Virus record (IMG/VR): IMGVR_UViG_3300025572_000014
Coordinates: 1-42,043 of that record
Direction: 5' to 3' (one strand)
Length of the DNA: 42,043 nt
Source: a virus
Lineage: Duplodnaviria > Caudoviricetes
The translations under genes were made by a program, and so were the position numbers. The notes below the pieces were generated by a model, which was not told where the DNA came from, did no database searches, and saw nothing but the letters and a program-made list of their open reading frames with translations. The stretch's first letter is position 1, and every line of letters starts with the position of its first letter. Of the stretch, positions 23,204 through 31,149 are shown one piece after another.

Positions 23204-24720
23204 AACACCTTCCTGATCTCGTATTTACTGAGGCCCAAATCCTCCAGCTCCGTCGGCGTGTAAAACTCACCTAGAAGCCGCCGTTTTTCCTTCGGCACAA
23301 ACCGATATTGCAGACGATTCAGCGCCTGACTCATCGCGTCTACCTGGTCGTCATGCGCGCCTTTCGGAAACGCCGCGCACTCGTCGATGAATTCCTCGAC
23401 CCACGGTTTGCCGCGCGGCAGATAGACGTTTCCCGCCTCGATCTCCGGCGCCACCGCAGACACGCGAGCAACCTTTCCACCTTCGGGCTGTACGGGCACG
23501 AGTCCGCCGACTTTGGTCCGCAGCATCTGTATGACCGCCGGGCCGTTAGCTTTGTCCTCGATGAGCTTCAGCTTCGCTTGCGGCCATTTTGCGGTCATCC
23601 GCACAATCGCATCCATCGTCTGCACGATGTCCATGCGGTCGCGCACCTGGTCGACGAGGTACTTATCCGCGCCGATGCGGCCCCATACCTGCCCCACCAC
23701 GTAGTCGCTTCCGTCGCTGTCTTTGAACGCGCAGTCCCAGCTTTGAATTATCTCGTCAAACCGCATGAAGCGCGGATCGATGTCGTAAAACCGCCACCAT
23801 TCGCGCTTTAACATCGCGCCTTCTGCGGCGCTCGGACGTTGTTGGTAGAGCGCGTTAAAGAAGTATGTCCCGACGGCTCGCCGCGTCTCCTCCAGCCGCT
23901 TTGCATCAAATCCGCCCTCCGGCCAGAGCGCTTCGCCCGGTTTTCGTCCGAGCATGTCGCCATCCTCTGCCAGCGCCGGAAAATTGATCACCGTCCAGCG
24001 CTCGCCTTCGTGCGTGCCCTCGGCGATCTCCTCGCGCTCCTTTTGCAGCAACCGCCCGATCAAATCATCCTCGTGCCAGCGCGTCGCAACGATGATGATG
24101 CGGCCGTCGCTCGTCAGCCGCGTAAACAACGTCGATTGGTACCACTCGTAAATCTTCTCGCGAATCGTCTCGCTCGCGGCTTCTTCGGCGTTTTTCAAAT
24201 AGTCGTCGATGATCGCGATTCTTGCGCCGCGCCCGGTGATCGGACCACCGATACCGGCGGCATTCAGCCCGCCGCGATGCCCGGCGATGCCCCAGCTCTC
24301 TGCGCTATGGTTGTCTGGGTCGATCTCGACGCCCGGAAACACCTCCGGCCGCGCCGCTAACGTGTCGCGAGCAATCCGCGAAAAATCGCGCGCAAGGTCA
24401 ATCGAATACGACGCAAGGATGATCTCGTCGTCCGGATTGCGCCCCAGGTGCCACGCAGGAAACTTTTTAGATACGCGCTCGCTTTTGCCATGCCGCGGCG
24501 GCATCGTCACGATCAGGCGCTTGATTTTGCCTTCGCTGACATCTTGAAGTGCGCGATCCAGCACGTCCAGATGCTTGCCTGGCGTATCCCGGAACCCACT
24601 GTCATAGTCCATGAAGTAGGTGAACGACTGATACGCCAGCGCCTTGCGCACGTCCTCCAGCGATGGCAGGCGGAGAGCGGGGGCGCCACTCTTGCGCTTA
24701 GCCTTCTTCGTCGCGCTCAT
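23200..24720 (-). CDS. terL: Terminase large subunit
   Basis: MPPRHGKS Walker A, IIDDY Walker B, TRWHEDD, SWDCA nuclease motif, IEDKANG, HDDQVDA. Confidence 0.95.
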   Translation of the reverse strand: MSATKKAKRKSGAPALRLPSLEDVRKALAYQSFTYFMDYDSGFRDTPGKHLDVLDRALQDVSEGKIKRLIVTMPPRHGKSERVSKKFPAWHLGRNPDDEIILASYSIDLARDFSRIARDTLAARPEVFPGVEIDPDNHSAESWGIAGHRGGLNAAGIGGPITGRGARIAIIDDYLKNAEEAASETIREKIYEWYQSTLFTRLTSDGRIIIVATRWHEDDLIGRLLQKEREEIAEGTHEGERWTVINFPALAEDGDMLGRKPGEALWPEGGFDAKRLEETRRAVGTYFFNALYQQRPSAAEGAMLKREWWRFYDIDPRFMRFDEIIQSWDCAFKDSDGSDYVVGQVWGRIGADKYLVDQVRDRMDIVQTMDAIVRMTAKWPQAKLKLIEDKANGPAVIQMLRTKVGGLVPVQPEGGKVARVSAVAPEIEAGNVYLPRGKPWVEEFIDECAAFPKGAHDDQVDAMSQALNRLQYRFVPKEKRRLLGEFYTPTELEDLGLSKYEIRKVL

Positions 24721-25376
24721 GGCTTGGCTTCCTTCCGCTTCTTTAGCCACGTTTTCCGACGCAACAGACGGCCGCATTCCGCGCCTGGTTCAAGCCACAA
24801 CTTCCACGGCAGCAATATCTTCCGCCTTTCCAGCGGATCGGCGTTCATCACCAACCGGCACAGCGTGGCGTTGATACGGTTTCTATCGCCACAAAAGATG
24901 ATTTCCGGGTTCAGATATAGCGGACGTTCCTCCACGACGCGCCCGTGCCGCTTCAATTGTTGCGCGTCCACAAACTCATAAATAATGCCCTTATCCAGCA
25001 ACGATGTTACCAGCGCCCGCGCCTGCCGCACGGAATACTTGGATGACTCAGCCAATGCGGAAATGGTCATATATCGGCCTTCCGCATCCACGACGGCGTT
25101 AGAGTGCATTTCTGTTCGACCCATCACAGACATCAAAAAAGCGAGTTCCGACGTGGTAAGATACTCGCTTTCGATGATGTAATTTAGGTTTTCGGCGATC
25201 ACCTGCACGAAACCGGCGGGATTGCGCGGCGTCACGTGGACGATCTTCACGTTTTGATCAACGGCCTTTTTCAGTTCCCGCGCCAGCGTGCCGACATCTA
25301 TTTCATTGTCAAAATCGCGTCGCCTGGCGTTCATCTCTGCGGCCCAAAAAGCCTGTTCTAGCGCGGCTCTACCCAC
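24717..25376 (-). CDS. RepL-like winged-helix replication/maintenance protein inserted between terS and terL
   Basis: FVQVIAENL...LT..E..FL...HTH...L.DKGII...LYLNPEIIFCG pattern of Firmicute plasmid RepL-type proteins; preceded by 22-bp iterons. Confidence 0.65.
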   Translation of the reverse strand: MGRAALEQAFWAAEMNARRRDFDNEIDVGTLARELKKAVDQNVKIVHVTPRNPAGFVQVIAENLNYIIESEYLTTSELAFLMSVMGRTEMHSNAVVDAEGRYMTISALAESSKYSVRQARALVTSLLDKGIIYEFVDAQQLKRHGRVVEERPLYLNPEIIFCGDRNRINATLCRLVMNADPLERRKILLPWKLWLEPGAECGRLLRRKTWLKKRKEAKP

Positions 25377-26196: not shown

Positions 26197-26225
26197 TTGA
26201 CAGTCGTAAAACGATGTGGTATGAT
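26197..26225 (+). promoter_or_regulatory. Near-consensus sigA promoter of the plus-strand operon
   Basis: TTGACA-17 nt-TATGAT with a TG extension and an AT-rich upstream region. Confidence 0.85.
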
Positions 26226-26237
26226 GAAGCCAACAAA

Positions 26238-26267
26238 GGCCGACAGCCGACGACAAGGGCGGCGGGC
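26238..26267 (+). repeat. Leader element A, copy 1 (GGCCGACAGCCGACGACAAGGGCGGCGGGC)
   Basis: Identical to 26680-26709; directly precedes an RBS. Confidence 0.9.
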
Positions 26268-26283: not shown

Positions 26284-26619
26284 ATGAAGAAAATCAAAAT
26301 CAATTATTACGCCGGGGAATCGAATTACCTGGGTCACGGCCAGCCCATCGCGGTTGACTACCTCATCTCCGACCCCCTCGATTGGGACGATCTCCGGGGA
26401 GACGAATTCGACGGCCCGATATTCGGGGACGACACCGCCGCCGATTTGATCCGGGTTGGCGGCAAATATCACCTGTACGCGGAAATGGAAAATCCCACCC
26501 GGAGCGAGGAAGACGAGACCGCAACTTTTGACAAGCTAAAAGCAGAAATCATCGAGCTTGCGAAAAAGGTTGGCATTGATCCGAGCCGACTTGTATTCCC
26601 GTATGACGACCCCGCCTGA
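26284..26619 (+). CDS. Acidic hypothetical protein (MKKIKINYYAGESNYLGHG...)
   Basis: GGAAAGGA RBS; its TGA stop is the UGA of hammerhead 1. Confidence 0.75.
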   Translation: MKKIKINYYAGESNYLGHGQPIAVDYLISDPLDWDDLRGDEFDGPIFGDDTAADLIRVGGKYHLYAEMENPTRSEEDETATFDKLKAEIIELAKKVGIDPSRLVFPYDDPA

Positions 26620-26665
26620 CGAGTCCGCTGGTCACGGACGAAACCGGGTTTATCCCGGTCGCGGG
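26611..26665 (+). ncRNA. Hammerhead ribozyme 1 (type I), predicted cleavage after C26660
   Basis: CCCGC | CUGACGA | GUCCG-cugguca-CGGAC | GAAA | CCGGG-uuuau-CCCGG | UC | GCGGG. Complete core, three perfect stems and a GUC triplet. Confidence 0.95.
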
Positions 26666-26679
26666 AGACCGCACATCAT

Positions 26680-26709
26680 GGCCGACAGCCGACGACAAGG
26701 GCGGCGGGC
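26680..26709 (+). repeat. Leader element A, copy 2
   Basis: 30/30 identity with 26238-26267; between hammerhead 1 and the next RBS. Confidence 0.9.
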
Positions 26710-26727
26710 TTGAAAGGAGAAGGAATC

Positions 26728-26991
26728 ATGGTAAAGATTGCGATCAAGGTGCAAAACAGCAAGGTTTACGGCGAAGACGAAAAGGGAACCTGGGAGGACT
26801 TGCTGGAAGAAATGGCGCTGAAAGTCGAAGGGTGGGCCGGCTACGACGTTGACGAGTCCAGCTACATCGGCGGAGCACGGCACATGCGGGGAACACTAAA
26901 CGATGAAAACTTTAAACCGATCTACACCTTCTACGCGGTTGTAACGGCTGAATGGGGCGAGGCCGAGGTCGGCAGGCTTCGGGGAGAGTGA
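26728..26991 (+). CDS. Hypothetical protein (MVKIAIKVQNSK...)
   Basis: AAAGGAGAAGGA RBS, ATG 26728. Confidence 0.7.
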   Translation: MVKIAIKVQNSKVYGEDEKGTWEDLLEEMALKVEGWAGYDVDESSYIGGARHMRGTLNDENFKPIYTFYAVVTAEWGEAEVGRLRGE

Positions 26992-27001
26992 CTTGACCGC
27001 C
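26969..27001 (+). repeat. Element B, copy 1 (TCGGCAGGCTTCGGGGAGAGTGACTTGACCGCC)
   Basis: 32/33 identical to 28089-28121; contains the stop of 26728-26991. Confidence 0.85.
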
Positions 27002-27043
27002 CCGGCCCCACAAAACCACCCGAAAGGACGTTTCGATATTTAG

Positions 27044-27109
27044 CCCGCCTGACGAGGCCCGGAGCGGACCGGGCCGAAACCTAGCCGCAGCTGCGGCGAT
27101 GGTCGCGGG
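27044..27109 (+). ncRNA. Hammerhead ribozyme 2 (type I), predicted cleavage after C27104
   Basis: CCCGC | CUGACGA | GGCCCGG-agcgga-CCGGGCC | GAAA | CC-ua-GCCGC-agcu-GCGGC-gau-GG | UC | GCGGG. Same core and stem I as HH1, with different stems II and III that still pair. Confidence 0.92.
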
Positions 27110-27143
27110 AAGCCCGCAACATAAAATCCAAGGAGGAATTATC

Positions 27144-27512
27144 ATGAACATCATCAATCTCACCCCCCACGCGATAAACGTTGTAAAGGATGACGGCACG
27201 ATCATCGCGTCGTTCCCGCCGTCAGGGGCGGTGGCGCGAGTGGACACGATCACGGATGACCTCGGACCTCTGAACGTGCACCCGGACATTCCGGTCGTCG
27301 TCCAGAGCTTCGGCGCGGTGAAGGGTCTGCCGGACCCGCAGCCGGACACGATCTATCTCGTGTCGATGGTTGTCGGGCAGGCGGCCGGACAAGATCGGGA
27401 CGACCTGCTCGGACCGGACACTTCGCCCGCCGGAGCGGTGCGTGATGCGGACGGCCGGATTATCGGAACCCGGCGGTTGGTGTACTACGGACGGGTAAAC
27501 CCGCGCCCTTGA
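27144..27512 (+). CDS. Conserved phage protein with an N-terminal NLTPH motif (possible ring-nuclease-like)
   Basis: AAGGAGG RBS; INLTPH...PSG.VARV...GLPDPQPDTIYLVS...R.DLL.P...RD..GRIIG. Function is inferred only. Confidence 0.75.
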   Translation: MNIINLTPHAINVVKDDGTIIASFPPSGAVARVDTITDDLGPLNVHPDIPVVVQSFGAVKGLPDPQPDTIYLVSMVVGQAAGQDRDDLLGPDTSPAGAVRDADGRIIGTRRLVYYGRVNPRP

Positions 27513-27627
27513 AACTGCGGGAGCGGGCAACCCGCAACGCTGTGCAATGCCGGTGATCCATATTGCGGTTGAAAGTGATACACATTCTAAAGCCACCATC
27601 CCAAACATTTGTTAAGGAGGAATCCAA

Positions 27628-28044
27628 ATGGGAAAATACGTTGTTGAGACGAACGGGTTGATTATGCGTCTGCCAAAGGTGCTCGAAGTGGAATGCTCCA
27701 CTTCTGAGGACCCGATCAAGAAGGCGCGGCAAACTCTCGCCGATATGTGCGTTCGTGAGAATGCGTCTTTCGCGGTTGGTCGGGCCGGTGCTTACCGTCC
27801 GACTCCCCCGGGTACCGTCTACCTGCCGCCGGATGTGGCGGAGGCGCTGAAATTCGTTCTTGCCGGGAACGAGAAAATGTCCGAAAAACTCGTTCTCCGA
27901 ATCGTTATGAACCCTGAGGCGGAAAAACGCATGGGGTGGGACGTGCTTCATCGCTGGGTGAAAAGCGACATCGGAAACATCATTCTCCTCATCGACGCTA
28001 TCCGGGACGGTTTCGATGTGGAGGTACGCGGAGCGTACCAGTGA
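27628..28044 (+). CDS. Hypothetical protein
   Basis: AAGGAGG RBS, 138 aa. Confidence 0.75.
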   Translation: MGKYVVETNGLIMRLPKVLEVECSTSEDPIKKARQTLADMCVRENASFAVGRAGAYRPTPPGTVYLPPDVAEALKFVLAGNEKMSEKLVLRIVMNPEAEKRMGWDVLHRWVKSDIGNIILLIDAIRDGFDVEVRGAYQ

Positions 28045-28067
28045 AAAACTGTCGGCGCTGAACGAAT

Positions 28068-28130
28068 GAAGCCCGCCGATCTCGCACATCGGCAGGCTTC
28101 GGGGAGAGTGACTCGACCGCCGCTCTCCCC
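28068..28130 (+). repeat. Double hairpin containing element B, copy 2
   Basis: GAAGCCcGCCGAU-cucgcac-AUCGGCaGGCUUC followed by GGGGAGAGUG-acucgaccgc-CGCUCUCCCC. Confidence 0.7.
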
Positions 28131-28161
28131 TCCATCATATCACATTTGGAGGGATTTGCAC

Positions 28162-28626
28162 ATGGAAAACATCAGCGTCGTCGCCGTGAAGCAGGTTCGG
28201 GAGCGGACGCTCCCCTACAACGTTCGTCCCATTCGCCAGCCCGAGGATGCTTATTCGATCCTTTGCGAAGCGATGGCACTGCACGAGGAAGCCATCGAAA
28301 AGTTTGGTGTTCTGCTCCTGGACACCAAATGCAACGTGAATGCCATCCAGATCATTTCCGCGGGGACCTTGGACCAAACGATCGTCCATCCGCGTTCCGT
28401 CTTCCTTGCGGCCGTTCTCGCGAATGCTCGGCAAATGATCCTGTTTCACAACCACCCGAGCGGAGACCCGAAAGCAAGCCGGGCAGACGTGGACATCACG
28501 CTCCGTCTCATCGACGCAAGCCGCATCATGGGCATTCCGATCATTGACCATATCATCGTAGGTGACGGAACATTTTACAGCATGCGAGCGCACGGCGACA
28601 TGCCTGCGCCGGAAGGGGCGGCCTAA
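28162..28626 (+). CDS. radC: RadC-like JAB/MPN domain protein
   Basis: EKFGVLLLD...GTLDQTIVHPR.VF...HNHPSGDPKAS.AD...IIDHIIVG; GGAGGG RBS; stand-alone JAB domain. Confidence 0.92.
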   Translation: MENISVVAVKQVRERTLPYNVRPIRQPEDAYSILCEAMALHEEAIEKFGVLLLDTKCNVNAIQIISAGTLDQTIVHPRSVFLAAVLANARQMILFHNHPSGDPKASRADVDITLRLIDASRIMGIPIIDHIIVGDGTFYSMRAHGDMPAPEGAA

Positions 28627-28724
28627 TGGACGTTGAATCATGGTTCCTGTTTACGCTGGCGCTGTTCGTAGTCCTCGGCGGGCTGACGCTCATTGCGTGG
28701 TTCGCCGAGATGCTGGAGGATTAA
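28626..28724 (+). CDS. 32-aa single-TM peptide (MDVESWFLFTLALFVVLGGLTLIAWFAEMLED); absent from the ORF track
   Basis: TAATG coupling to the radC stop, GAAGGGG RBS, hydrophobic core; its stop abuts twister-sister 1. Confidence 0.65.
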   Translation: MDVESWFLFTLALFVVLGGLTLIAWFAEMLED

Positions 28725-28797
28725 CGAAGGCTAGGCCCAGTCCCGTGAAAGCCGGGACCGGCGGGGAGCACCCCCGCCGCGGCGCTCAACCGATCGT
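28725..28797 (+). ncRNA. Twister-sister ribozyme 1 (three-way junction), predicted cleavage C28787/A28788
   Basis: GG-CUAG-GCC-CA-GUCCCG-ugaaagc-CGGGAC-C-GGCGGGG-agcac-CCCCGCC-GC-GGC-GCUCA-A-CC. Closely matches the twister-sister architecture as I recall it (GCWAG...GCUCA internal loop, UG.AAGC loop). Confidence 0.85.
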
Positions 28798-28852
28798 ACC
28801 TATGAGGAATGCGGCCTGCGGCCGTAAAAATCAATCAAAAGGGTGATGTTGG

Positions 28853-29278
28853 ATGACGTTGTTTCGGAAGAAGTTTCCCTCCTTTCTGGAGGGACTGCAT
28901 GAGCTCATGCAGGTTTGCTATTCTGCTCGTCAGTCTCTCAGCCACAACCTCGGACGCTCGCCTGCGTCTGAGGAAGAAGCGGTTTCCGCGCTGGCGATCA
29001 ACGCAGTATGCGATCGCCCGACCGGAAACGGCGTAGATTGGGCGCGGTGCAGCTTGTCCGTCACCGCCACGGACGTTCTTTACCGTACCACGGGCGGACT
29101 TGAATTCGGGTGGAGTCCGCTTCTCGGCGGCGGCCAGACAGATATTTTTGATGGTTCGTTCGAATTTCTCATCATCTATCCGGGGTGTGTGCCCGCTCCG
29201 CCGCACTCCACCTTGCGCAAGAGTTGCGCAGAGGCCGGTTGGGAGGTGGTGGAACCGTTGGAACAGTCCGAGGGCTAG
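28853..29278 (+). CDS. Hypothetical protein
   Basis: AAGGGTG RBS; its TAG stop lies in the GCUAG of twister-sister 2. Confidence 0.65.
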   Translation: MTLFRKKFPSFLEGLHELMQVCYSARQSLSHNLGRSPASEEEAVSALAINAVCDRPTGNGVDWARCSLSVTATDVLYRTTGGLEFGWSPLLGGGQTDIFDGSFEFLIIYPGCVPAPPHSTLRKSCAEAGWEVVEPLEQSEG

Positions 29279-29331
29279 GGACAAGGCCGTGAAGCCCGGC
29301 GCGGGGCCGCGGCCCCTTCCGCTCAACCTCG
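29269..29331 (+). ncRNA. Twister-sister ribozyme 2 (variant), predicted cleavage C29324/A29325
   Basis: CGAGG | GCUAG | GGA | CAAG | GCCG-ugaagcc-CGGC | GC | GGGGCC-gc-GGCCCC | U | UCC | GCUCAA | CCUCG. P2 covaries with TS1 (GCC/GGC to GGA/UCC); the loop deviates. Confidence 0.7.
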
Positions 29332-29361: not shown

Positions 29362-29769
29362 ATGAAAATTGGGCTGATTCGCGGCCGGCATCCGCTGCCG
29401 GTCGAAAAATGCCTGATCGAGCAGGCAGAGGTGCCGTTCGATCAGGCGCATCGCATGGCATATGACGCCATGCAGAAGCTGCTATCGGAACATGCCGGAG
29501 ATGTCGATCTTTACATTACCGGCCTTAAGCGCGCCACGTTGGGCGCCGTCGCAGGCTGGATCAATCACTACGACCGCATCGAGCCAGCGGAATACAGTTC
29601 CGCCGCTCCCGAGTCGCGCACGCTGCGGATCTGGGAGTATAACGCGGTAACGGGGCAGTACGAATCCGTCATTGCATTCCGGTCCGGGGCAATCATGACG
29701 GAAGTCCTTTACTGTCAGGGCTCATACCAGTTCGTCTGGGGTACATATGCCCTCATGGAAGGGACGTGA
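29362..29769 (+). CDS. Hypothetical phage protein with GRH and LYITGL motifs
   Basis: AAGGAG RBS; MKIGLIRGRHPLPV...VDLYITGL...LRIWEYN..TGQY. Confidence 0.75.
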   Translation: MKIGLIRGRHPLPVEKCLIEQAEVPFDQAHRMAYDAMQKLLSEHAGDVDLYITGLKRATLGAVAGWINHYDRIEPAEYSSAAPESRTLRIWEYNAVTGQYESVIAFRSGAIMTEVLYCQGSYQFVWGTYALMEGT

Positions 29770-29825
29770 GGCCTCTCCCATGTTTTTCACAAGTAAGGAC
29801 ATTATTCGCGGAGGAGGAATTAGAC

Positions 29826-30263
29826 ATGGCTAAAACCCACACCGGCTTTCGCATACGGCCCGAAGTGCTTGAACAGTTGGACGCCCGAGGGCCTCGATCC
29901 ACGATTGCGGATCGCGATCTGGAACGCCTGTATGCGCTCTATGCCCGGGCGCTCCAGCGCGTCGTGCCGTCGTTCAGCATCGACGAACTGTGCCTCATCG
30001 TCGATGCCCTGAATGGCACCCTGCACGACGTTCGCAGCGGCGTGCGGTTCTGGATCGGCGTCGAGGATTCCATCGAACTCGACGGACTCGCCCAAAAATG
30101 GAACGTCGACGCTCTGGCACTCATGGAGAAACTGCGCCCGCTCGACGAACTGACCTGCATGGCGATTGTGGACGCCGCAGAGCGGTTCTGGTGCGGCGAG
30201 AAGTACCGCAACATGGACGTGCATGAAGGTGTGCGCGATGCGTTCGGAATTAGGAATACTTGA
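29826..30263 (+). CDS. Putative regulator: N-terminal ribbon-helix-helix-like segment plus helical domain
   Basis: GGAGGAGG RBS; HTGFRIRPEVLEQLDARGPRSTIADRDLERL resembles Arc/MetJ strand-helix-helix. Confidence 0.6.
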   Translation: MAKTHTGFRIRPEVLEQLDARGPRSTIADRDLERLYALYARALQRVVPSFSIDELCLIVDALNGTLHDVRSGVRFWIGVEDSIELDGLAQKWNVDALALMEKLRPLDELTCMAIVDAAERFWCGEKYRNMDVHEGVRDAFGIRNT

Positions 30264-31149
30264 CGCGAAACTGGAGGCGTTAGAGCGGCGCATATGGGAA
30301 GATGTGCGCCGCGATTGGGATTACGTGGATAAAATCCACGTCCAGCAGGAAGACTTCGACGCGCTGAAACGGGTGCGCCTCTCGCCGGAGGAACTATCTC
30401 CGGTGCTGGAGGCGCTGTTTCGGCCGGAGAAACGCATGTTTCTGGATGACATCGCGCTCATCGTAGCGGCGGATGAGGATGTGCGCCGGATTATCCATCT
30501 GAAATACCTGGACCCGGAAAACGCCGTCCTTTCCGCCTTCGACGGCGACGGCAGGTTGTTCGGACGCATCGCCGTCCACGTCGAGGGTGATGATGTGCAG
30601 GTGAAACCGGACAGCGTGGCGCCGTTCGGGCTTCGATACGTGGACCGGTTCGCGCGGGAGTATTTGGCGAAGTACGAGCCGACGCCGGACATGTACCAAG
30701 GCGGCCGGGTCACGAATGCCGCCGTCCGGAAACTCATGGCGCAGCTCCATGTGCGGCTTTCCGAGCGGATGCTGCCGCGGCTTGAAGAATTTTTTTTCTT
30801 TGTGCTCGCGGCGATCCATCGGGTTCTGAACACGCCGGTCATCGTGAAGCCGGCGCCGTACTCGGAAGACGCCTCGCCGCAGGAAGTCGAGGCATTGAAT
30901 CAGCGGCGGCCGGCGGCTCTCGGACCGCGTGCGCCTTATCCACGGTCGCTCCAGCGCATCATCTATGCGGGCCGTCCAGCGCCGCAGAAACGAGACGGTC
31001 CGCGGGTGTACGTCCAGCACGTCGAGTCCTGGAAGGTGCGCGGACATTGGCGCGTGTATCGAACGGGAAAGCGCGTGTGGGTACGGCCGCACGTAAAGGG
31101 GCGGAAGTCCGAGAAGTTTCGGCCGCTCGGCGCTGACTATATTTTGTGA
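30238..31149 (+). CDS. Hypothetical protein with a basic C-terminal VRGHWR...WVRPHVKG motif
   Basis: GAAGGTG RBS before ATG 30238. The motif recurs in phage proteins of unknown function. Confidence 0.7.
   Translation: MRSELGILDAKLEALERRIWEDVRRDWDYVDKIHVQQEDFDALKRVRLSPEELSPVLEALFRPEKRMFLDDIALIVAADEDVRRIIHLKYLDPENAVLSAFDGDGRLFGRIAVHVEGDDVQVKPDSVAPFGLRYVDRFAREYLAKYEPTPDMYQGGRVTNAAVRKLMAQLHVRLSERMLPRLEEFFFFVLAAIHRVLNTPVIVKPAPYSEDASPQEVEALNQRRPAALGPRAPYPRSLQRIIYAGRPAPQKRDGPRVYVQHVESWKVRGHWRVYRTGKRVWVRPHVKGRKSEKFRPLGADYIL

Follow-up and report, generated by a model that had tools for sequence, protein, structure and literature searches.

We analysed a 42,043-nucleotide (nt) stretch of viral DNA (Duplodnaviria; Caudoviricetes), positions 1 to 42,043 of IMG/VR record IMGVR_UViG_3300025572_000014 and hereafter called the window, in which an operon of small genes is interspersed with four self-cleaving ribozyme motifs, two of which contain the stop codon of the gene in front of them. 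The phage is of temperate type. Encoded on the minus strand are terminase, portal and head proteins together with DnaC/DnaD-like ones; on the plus strand, a run of about ten small genes is bounded by the small terminase gene on one side and a sigma-factor-like regulator on the other. A sigma-70-type promoter-like match precedes this accessory operon, in which a RadC-like gene is the sole member with a named family (Table 1). The ribosome-binding sites and the closest hammerhead look-alikes point to a host within the Bacillota.

Table 1. Predicted features of the accessory operon and its ribozymes (window coordinates)
Feature	Position	Strand	Remarks
Sigma-70-type promoter-like site, heads accessory operon	26197..26225	+	11/12 consensus matches, extended -10; predicted
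Leader repeat D4 copy 1, 30 nt, likely transcript start	26238..26267	+	exact repeat
Gene A, 111 amino acids (aa)	26284..26619	+	final Pro-Ala and stop supplied by HH1
HH1, type I hammerhead	26611..26665	+	core UGA 26617-19 = gene A stop; predicted cut after 26660
Stem I 3' strand and tail of HH1	26661..26672	+	predicted pairings
Leader repeat D4 copy 2, behind HH1 cut	26680..26709	+	exact repeat
Gene B, 87 aa	26728..26991	+	last codons and TGA within repeat D2 (26969-27001)
HH2, type I hammerhead, no stop overlap	27044..27109	+	predicted cut after 27104
Gene C, 122 aa	27144..27512	+	phrog_30542
Gene D, 138 aa	27628..28044	+	open reading frame list
Two-hairpin element, ribozyme-like slot, without Rfam match	28068..28130	+	folding z -3.1
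RadC-like JAB-domain gene	28162..28626	+	PF04002, E 7e-40
32-aa hydrophobic putative open reading frame	28626..28724	+	start overlaps radC stop; TAA at TS1 edge
TS1, twister-sister	28723..28798	+	RF02681 40.4 bits; predicted cut after 28787
Gene 28853, 141 aa	28853..29278	+	last codons and TAG from TS2
TS2, twister-sister	29269..29331	+	structural scan; predicted cut after 29324
Three more operon genes, no ribozymes between	29362..31149	+	

An earlier note on this DNA had reported three contacts between stop codons and ribozymes, and all three hold. Gene A ends on the core UGA of the first hammerhead (HH1), and gene 28853 ends on the UAG of the second twister-sister (TS2), its TAG at 29276-29278 forming part of GCUAG at 29274-29278. 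The TAA of the 32-aa open reading frame (ORF; 28722-28724) adjoins the first twister-sister (TS1): it begins 10 nt before the UAG and has one base in common with the predicted distal P1 helix. The second hammerhead (HH2) is without overlap, as the upstream gene stops at 26991, about 52 nt before it. Judged by their relatives, both overlapping ORFs are real genes: gene A has 12 homologues besides itself and gene 28853 has 60. The latter were found by a full HMMER scan, a word-index search having returned no relative of this gene; its conserved domain ends near residue 130, and the tail is variable (15 of 61 matches aligned). Neither Pfam nor PHROG gives a match for gene A.

Both hammerheads carry the CUGANGA core, the GAAA and the NUH triplet of a type I hammerhead. 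In HH1, stem I pairs 26611-26615 with 26661-26665, the core CUGACGA occupies 26616-26622 and the NUH triplet ends at C26660. A pairing scan assigns each of the two three stems, with stem I open and stems II and III loop-closed; this arrangement comes from the pairing scan, the minimum-free-energy folds of the hammerheads being without stem I, and free-energy folding fails to set the ribozymes apart from their surroundings (z -1.0 to -1.3). Against the Rfam model Hammerhead_1 (RF00163), HH1 scores 22.6 bits (E 0.051), under the gathering score of 34, and HH2 is absent from the Rfam matches at E up to 5. These sub-threshold scores weaken the formal family membership of the two hammerheads and leave their structural assignment intact. 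In both, loop II can form 4 base pairs (bp) with the 3' tail. For HH1, 26667-26670 is predicted to pair with loop II (26630-26633) before the cut, and 26661-26672 is predicted to be able to form a 4-bp tetraloop hairpin after it.

TS1 passes the RF02681 gathering score (40.4 versus 34 bits), and its P1 is irregular, with one canonical pair and a distal 4-bp helix. The tail of the TS1 region (28723-28830) resembles the tail behind a hammerhead in another locus of our survey, L457, and TS1 may be a damaged recombinant. TS2 gives no RF02681 match at E up to 5; a structural scan finds in it a P1 of 5 bp, a P2 of 3 bp, a P3 of 4 bp, the GCWAG/GCUCA loop, a 7-nt hairpin loop and a fourth helix, and it has close relatives in loci L124, L133 and L144. 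Hammerheads cut after the NUH triplet, near their 3' end, and the twister-sisters presumably cut after 28787 (TS1) and 29324 (TS2), positions that we take over from known structures. All four predicted cuts thus fall near the ribozyme 3' ends, with each stop upstream of the corresponding cut.

Pattern scans of viral and genome contigs returned at least 446 loci, and the survey figures given here are among the matches listed. A pairing scan yielded 472 hammerhead hits, which were reduced to 226, the window's included, by keeping only those with 450 nt of sequence in front of them and discarding duplicates that shared their upstream DNA; the same filtering retained 22 of 33 twister-sister hits. 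We counted as a gene any ORF of at least 50 codons led by a Shine-Dalgarno (SD) motif, and, where several lay nearby, assigned the longest as the upstream gene. Because the scan patterns fixed stem I, stops within stem I are invisible to this survey. A gene ends at the core UGA in 59 of the 226 dereplicated hammerheads versus 18 of 611 non-ribozyme CUGANGA heptamers (Fisher p 1e-21); as a second control, 871 of 15,800 other sense TGAs end a gene. The overlap therefore far exceeds chance. It is also concentrated in one frame, with 59, 3 and 12 of the 226 reached at the core by an ORF in frames 0, 1 and 2, respectively. ORFs entering in frame 2 stop before the cut in 8 of 12 cases, compared with 53 of 214 otherwise (p 0.004).

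By stop class, the 226 hammerheads divide into 51 with the stop in the core, 60 with it flush (4 to 16 nt before the core UGA), 37 with it further upstream (spaced, more than 16 nt), 7 with it elsewhere inside the ribozyme before the cut, 11 with it past the cut and 60 without a called gene. The flush stops are spread evenly over the three frames (21, 21 and 18 of 60). Cores of the double-stop form CUGAUGA are not favoured in overlaps (17 of 51 core-class hammerheads versus 36 of 97 flush or spaced). The 22 twister-sisters comprise 5 core, 8 flush, 5 spaced, 1 past and 3 without a called gene. In these ribozymes GCUAG can be replaced by GCAAG, as it is in 9 of the 22; none of those 9 is entered in the stop frame, and 5 of the 13 with GCUAG were called core, or 6 counting TS2 of the window. 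Core-ended genes are ordinary: they run from 55 to 945 codons and include a helicase, a methyltransferase and a Gam-like protein. PHROG matches were obtained for 10 of 55 scanned core-ended ORFs, some extending up to the last residues, and for 0 of 17 ORFs ending inside or past the cut. Among host groups, compared for coupled versus uncoupled translation on small numbers, we counted 5 core and 6 flush of 33 in Bacillota, 1 and 1 of 7 in Alphaproteobacteria, and 0 and 2 of 14 in Cyanobacteria. One extra base stands between the core and stem II in 60 of the 226 hammerheads.

The check proposed in the earlier note, conservation of the overlap in loci with different upstream genes, comes out both ways: the overlap recurs with many unrelated upstream genes, yet within gene families some members have it and others lack it. 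Eleven metagenome loci of gene A together with L124 collapse to 9 distinct arrangements, of which 2 place the stop in the core, 1 has it flush, 3 have their own stop 23 nt before the core and 3 are ribozyme-free. The family usually ends in Tyr-Asp-Glu, and 10 of its 13 proteins lack the Pro-Ala tail, which gene A has because stem I of HH1 is translated. The two core-ended copies, in the window and in L124, differ in stems II and III. More widely, 24 families have a core-ended member and at least two distinct ends; 14 are mixed and 10 are all-core, and some of the mixed families swap a hammerhead for a twister-sister at unchanged protein length. In the pair L335/L342, a gene has lost its own TAA and reads through to the core. 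In L031, the gene starting at 3118 has retained its borrowed stop though the hammerhead core is mutated. Broken or truncated hammerheads with the borrowed stop retained were seen in L031, L147, L453 and L455.

Gene A has 7 different downstream neighbours in its 9 loci, among them the ArdA antirestriction protein, whose gene lies directly behind gene A in L452, L453 (1220-1723) and L455, suggesting that the arrays carry early anti-defence genes. Contigs of other sequencing runs hold a hybrid hammerhead, and in one place the TS1 tail is joined to gene C. Single-gene cassettes are shuffled among related phages (the window, L124, L449, L451-L457, L008, L144 and L152), with ribozymes and leader repeats at the joints; recombination at these repeated RNA modules is likely. 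The exact 30-nt leader repeat D4 precedes gene A homologues in all mapped loci and other genes in related phages as well.

Overlapped and spaced ribozymes do not differ in build. Of 203 hammerheads, 114 have loop II paired with the 3' tail, compared with 40 (maximum 54) for permuted partners, and pairing of loop II with the 5' flank is at chance level (17 of 203 versus 20 permuted). The pseudoknot occurs at similar rates in core (27 of 47), flush (29 of 54) and spaced (18 of 33) hammerheads, and neither stem I energy nor the post-cut hairpin differs between the three classes (p 0.19-0.90). The tertiary contact uses the 3' tail, and no covariation was seen 5' of stem I, so the ribozyme apparently needs no sequence in front of that stem. 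A RiboJ-like hairpin was considered as a separately selected feature and set aside: permuting the partners left 79 against 90 of 203, and the patterns fixed stem I.

Together, these results indicate, with a probability of about two in three, that the two stops lie in the following ribozymes since the ribozymes serve as gene-by-gene punctuation, a lost stop being rescued by the first stop before the cut. As the overlap recurs and yet comes and goes within one gene family, it most likely reflects tight packing and not a translation-controlled switch; this is the economy, with cassettes borrowing their stop from the ribozyme, that the earlier note had offered as an alternative, and the turnover within families supports it. 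The ribozymes would cut the accessory operon message into gene-sized mRNAs. Each would cut near its own 3' end, its body staying on the upstream mRNA and the next gene gaining a new 5' end. As nothing upstream of stem I is needed, the 5' spacer would be dispensable and would shrink. Read-through beyond the cut would give a stop-less mRNA and be purged. Stopping at the core UGA, which is invariant, or at the UAG of GCUAG, which is optional, would add only two or three residues to the protein, and the UGA, two codons into the ribozyme, would be the cheapest rescue stop; once borrowed, a stop would be inherited. Stem I is probably melted by terminating ribosomes from time to time, which may slow cutting and would be tolerated.

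Several observations weigh against this explanation. Ten families are all-core, one of them with 4 diverged members. If any stop before the cut sufficed, frames 1 and 2 should show about 12 and 16 pre-cut stops, and they show 1 and 8. A stop on the core or no more than 16 nt from it, about one ribosome footprint, is found in 111 of the 166 gene-bearing hammerheads, and the next gene starts a median of 42 nt past the cut; selection for closeness would look alike. In 11 of the 166, the primary ORF seems to cross the cut, and there are no PHROG matches among these ORFs. The simple gene rule missed TS2 of the window and the 32-aa ORF, because of its SD motif and 50-codon requirements. Finally, a hairpin competing with stem I is predicted in 151 of the 226 hammerheads (101 in shuffled sequences).

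RNA evidence was considered and set aside. The metatranscriptome run X3, represented by contigs of one study, covers mainly the operon. None of its listed contigs spans HH1, HH2, TS1 or TS2; two start 9 nt past the cuts predicted for HH1 and HH2, and another has its end at 26613. We did not count these as evidence of cleavage because depth is 2-11 and contigs cannot show ends. Contigs of the DNA run X1, from which the window may derive, span HH1, HH2 and TS2.

An alternative that we regard as unlikely is that closeness itself was selected for housekeeping, either because the terminating ribosome would strip stem I after the cut and thereby free the downstream mRNA, or because a short 3' end would leave nucleases no single-stranded entry site. 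The pile-up of stops at -16 to 0 is what it predicts, and the twister-sisters are similar (13 of 19 with a called gene). Genome compaction alone would give the same pile-up, however, and the 37 of 166 hammerheads with spaced stops, HH2 included, look intact.

The earlier note had put first the gating of cleavage by translation, which as a selected function is about as unlikely a reading on our evidence. A ribosome covers some 12-15 nt from the first base of the stop, which amounts to about a third (32-40%) of HH1 or TS2 and not to the 5' half that had been supposed; a third is enough to melt stem I. On this account stem I and the core are melted as the ribosome terminates, the 3' strand thus released folds as a tetraloop hairpin and cleavage is delayed, so that release of the downstream mRNA would report on upstream translation and occur only once that translation drops, for example under host shut-off or starvation; ribozyme repeats would in addition serve as swap points for single-gene cassettes. 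Consistent with it, the 111 stops just mentioned lie within one footprint, and the competing hairpin, common in the survey, is nearly as stable in HH1 as stem I (predicted -7.7 versus -8.3 kcal/mol). A pseudoknotted hammerhead is given as cutting at more than 1.2 per min in vitro in the available parts of PMC3088659, which may be slow enough for a ribosome to arrive first. The register of stop to ribozyme varies, however; one and the same gene is found with overlap, without overlap and without a ribozyme; the core-ended ORFs are full genes rather than leader peptides; and overlapped and spaced ribozymes are built alike. The hairpin, moreover, is partly accounted for by the pseudoknot (90 of 203 versus 79 permuted), and intrinsic terminators of Bacillus subtilis also lie few nt past stops, where transcription outruns ribosomes (PMC7858274, in part). 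With the overlap not kept for a given gene and the overlapped ribozymes without special architecture, gating finds no support.

Least probable of all is an assembly scar, in which new genes were joined to ribozyme modules through short matches at their own stop, fixing frame 0 directly: this would account for the frame-0 excess and fits the varied neighbours of gene A, the different stems II and III of its core-ended copies and three ribozyme-free homologues in one family that end on bases matching stem I and UGA, but those three may be remnants after ribozyme loss, and in several pairs a small change, within a layout that was flush beforehand, has removed the gene's own stop.

The two-hairpin element occupies the same kind of slot as the ribozymes. 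Repeat D2 is a partial copy of the two-hairpin element, and the stop of gene B is thus borrowed from a non-ribozyme repeat; neither D2 nor D4 has an Rfam match. Relatives of the two-hairpin element occur in L456 (1149-1236), L011, L008, L134 and L454, often flush to a stop, with stems that vary and pairing that is kept; it is possibly a nuclease site or a stabiliser. The gap between genes C and D (27512-27627, 115 nt) has no Rfam match and folds unremarkably (z 0.0), and 77 nt of it are missing from one contig of another run. On the minus strand, an ORF of 219 aa (24717-25376), helix-turn-helix-like and without PHROG match, is inserted between the small and large terminase genes.

The window holds a new example of ribozyme-punctuated phage operons, ordinary in kind, the borrowed stops being a likely by-product. 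Within this lineage, one gene exists in natural variants whose stop is in the core, flush or spaced, or that have no ribozyme, so that an effect of translation on cleavage is directly testable. Proteins whose last residues are Pro-Ala or Gln-Gly mark hidden hammerheads and twister-sisters that escape Rfam. If gating were true, it would be a natural ribosome-controlled ribozyme, of which our literature search found none. That search, covering few subscription papers and Perreault et al. without the supplement figures, turned up no account of stops in the cores of phage ribozymes, nor of natural ribozymes gated by ribosomes; the available text of PMC13725137 and PMC5052635 mentions neither. A 2026 preprint, in the part available, notes that ribozyme cores contain stop triplets, with the origin of the code in mind and not overlap with genes, and a 2019 review calls the purpose of self-cleaving ribozymes beside phage genes undefined (PMC6765202, likewise in part).

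Among known systems, which we compare from the available parts of the cited papers, the closest are the clustered hammerheads between inconstant prophage genes, which cleave in vitro and in Escherichia coli and need a pseudoknot-type contact for fast cleavage (Perreault et al. 2011, PMC3088659); cutting of long transcripts into gene-length mRNAs was already proposed there. The window resembles those clusters in that several ribozymes flank single genes or short blocks of inconstant identity, with a pseudoknot contact and ardA nearby, and differs in that twister-sisters share the array and stops lie inside the core. Apart from the irregular P1 of TS1, its ribozymes share core nucleotides and stems with the RF00163 and RF02681 models. 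Translation-controlled attenuators have a short dedicated leader peptide in fixed register; the core-ended ORFs of the survey (those of at least 50 codons counted) are longer, and their register varies. As in RiboJ (PMC6206723), a hammerhead cut would leave a hairpin-bearing 5' end before a ribosome-binding site; RiboJ sits behind a promoter and its 23-nt hairpin was designed, whereas the hairpin in the window is predicted, has 4-5 bp and overlaps the pseudoknot partner. In B. subtilis, intrinsic terminators stand close behind stops under runaway transcription (Johnson et al. 2020, summarised in PMC7858274), adjoining them because transcription outruns ribosomes, and they are a precedent for tolerated closeness of stop and signal. 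The window shares with them a folded RNA signal few nt past a stop, which would act even though a ribosome could mask it, and differs in that its signal would cut the RNA rather than terminate transcription.

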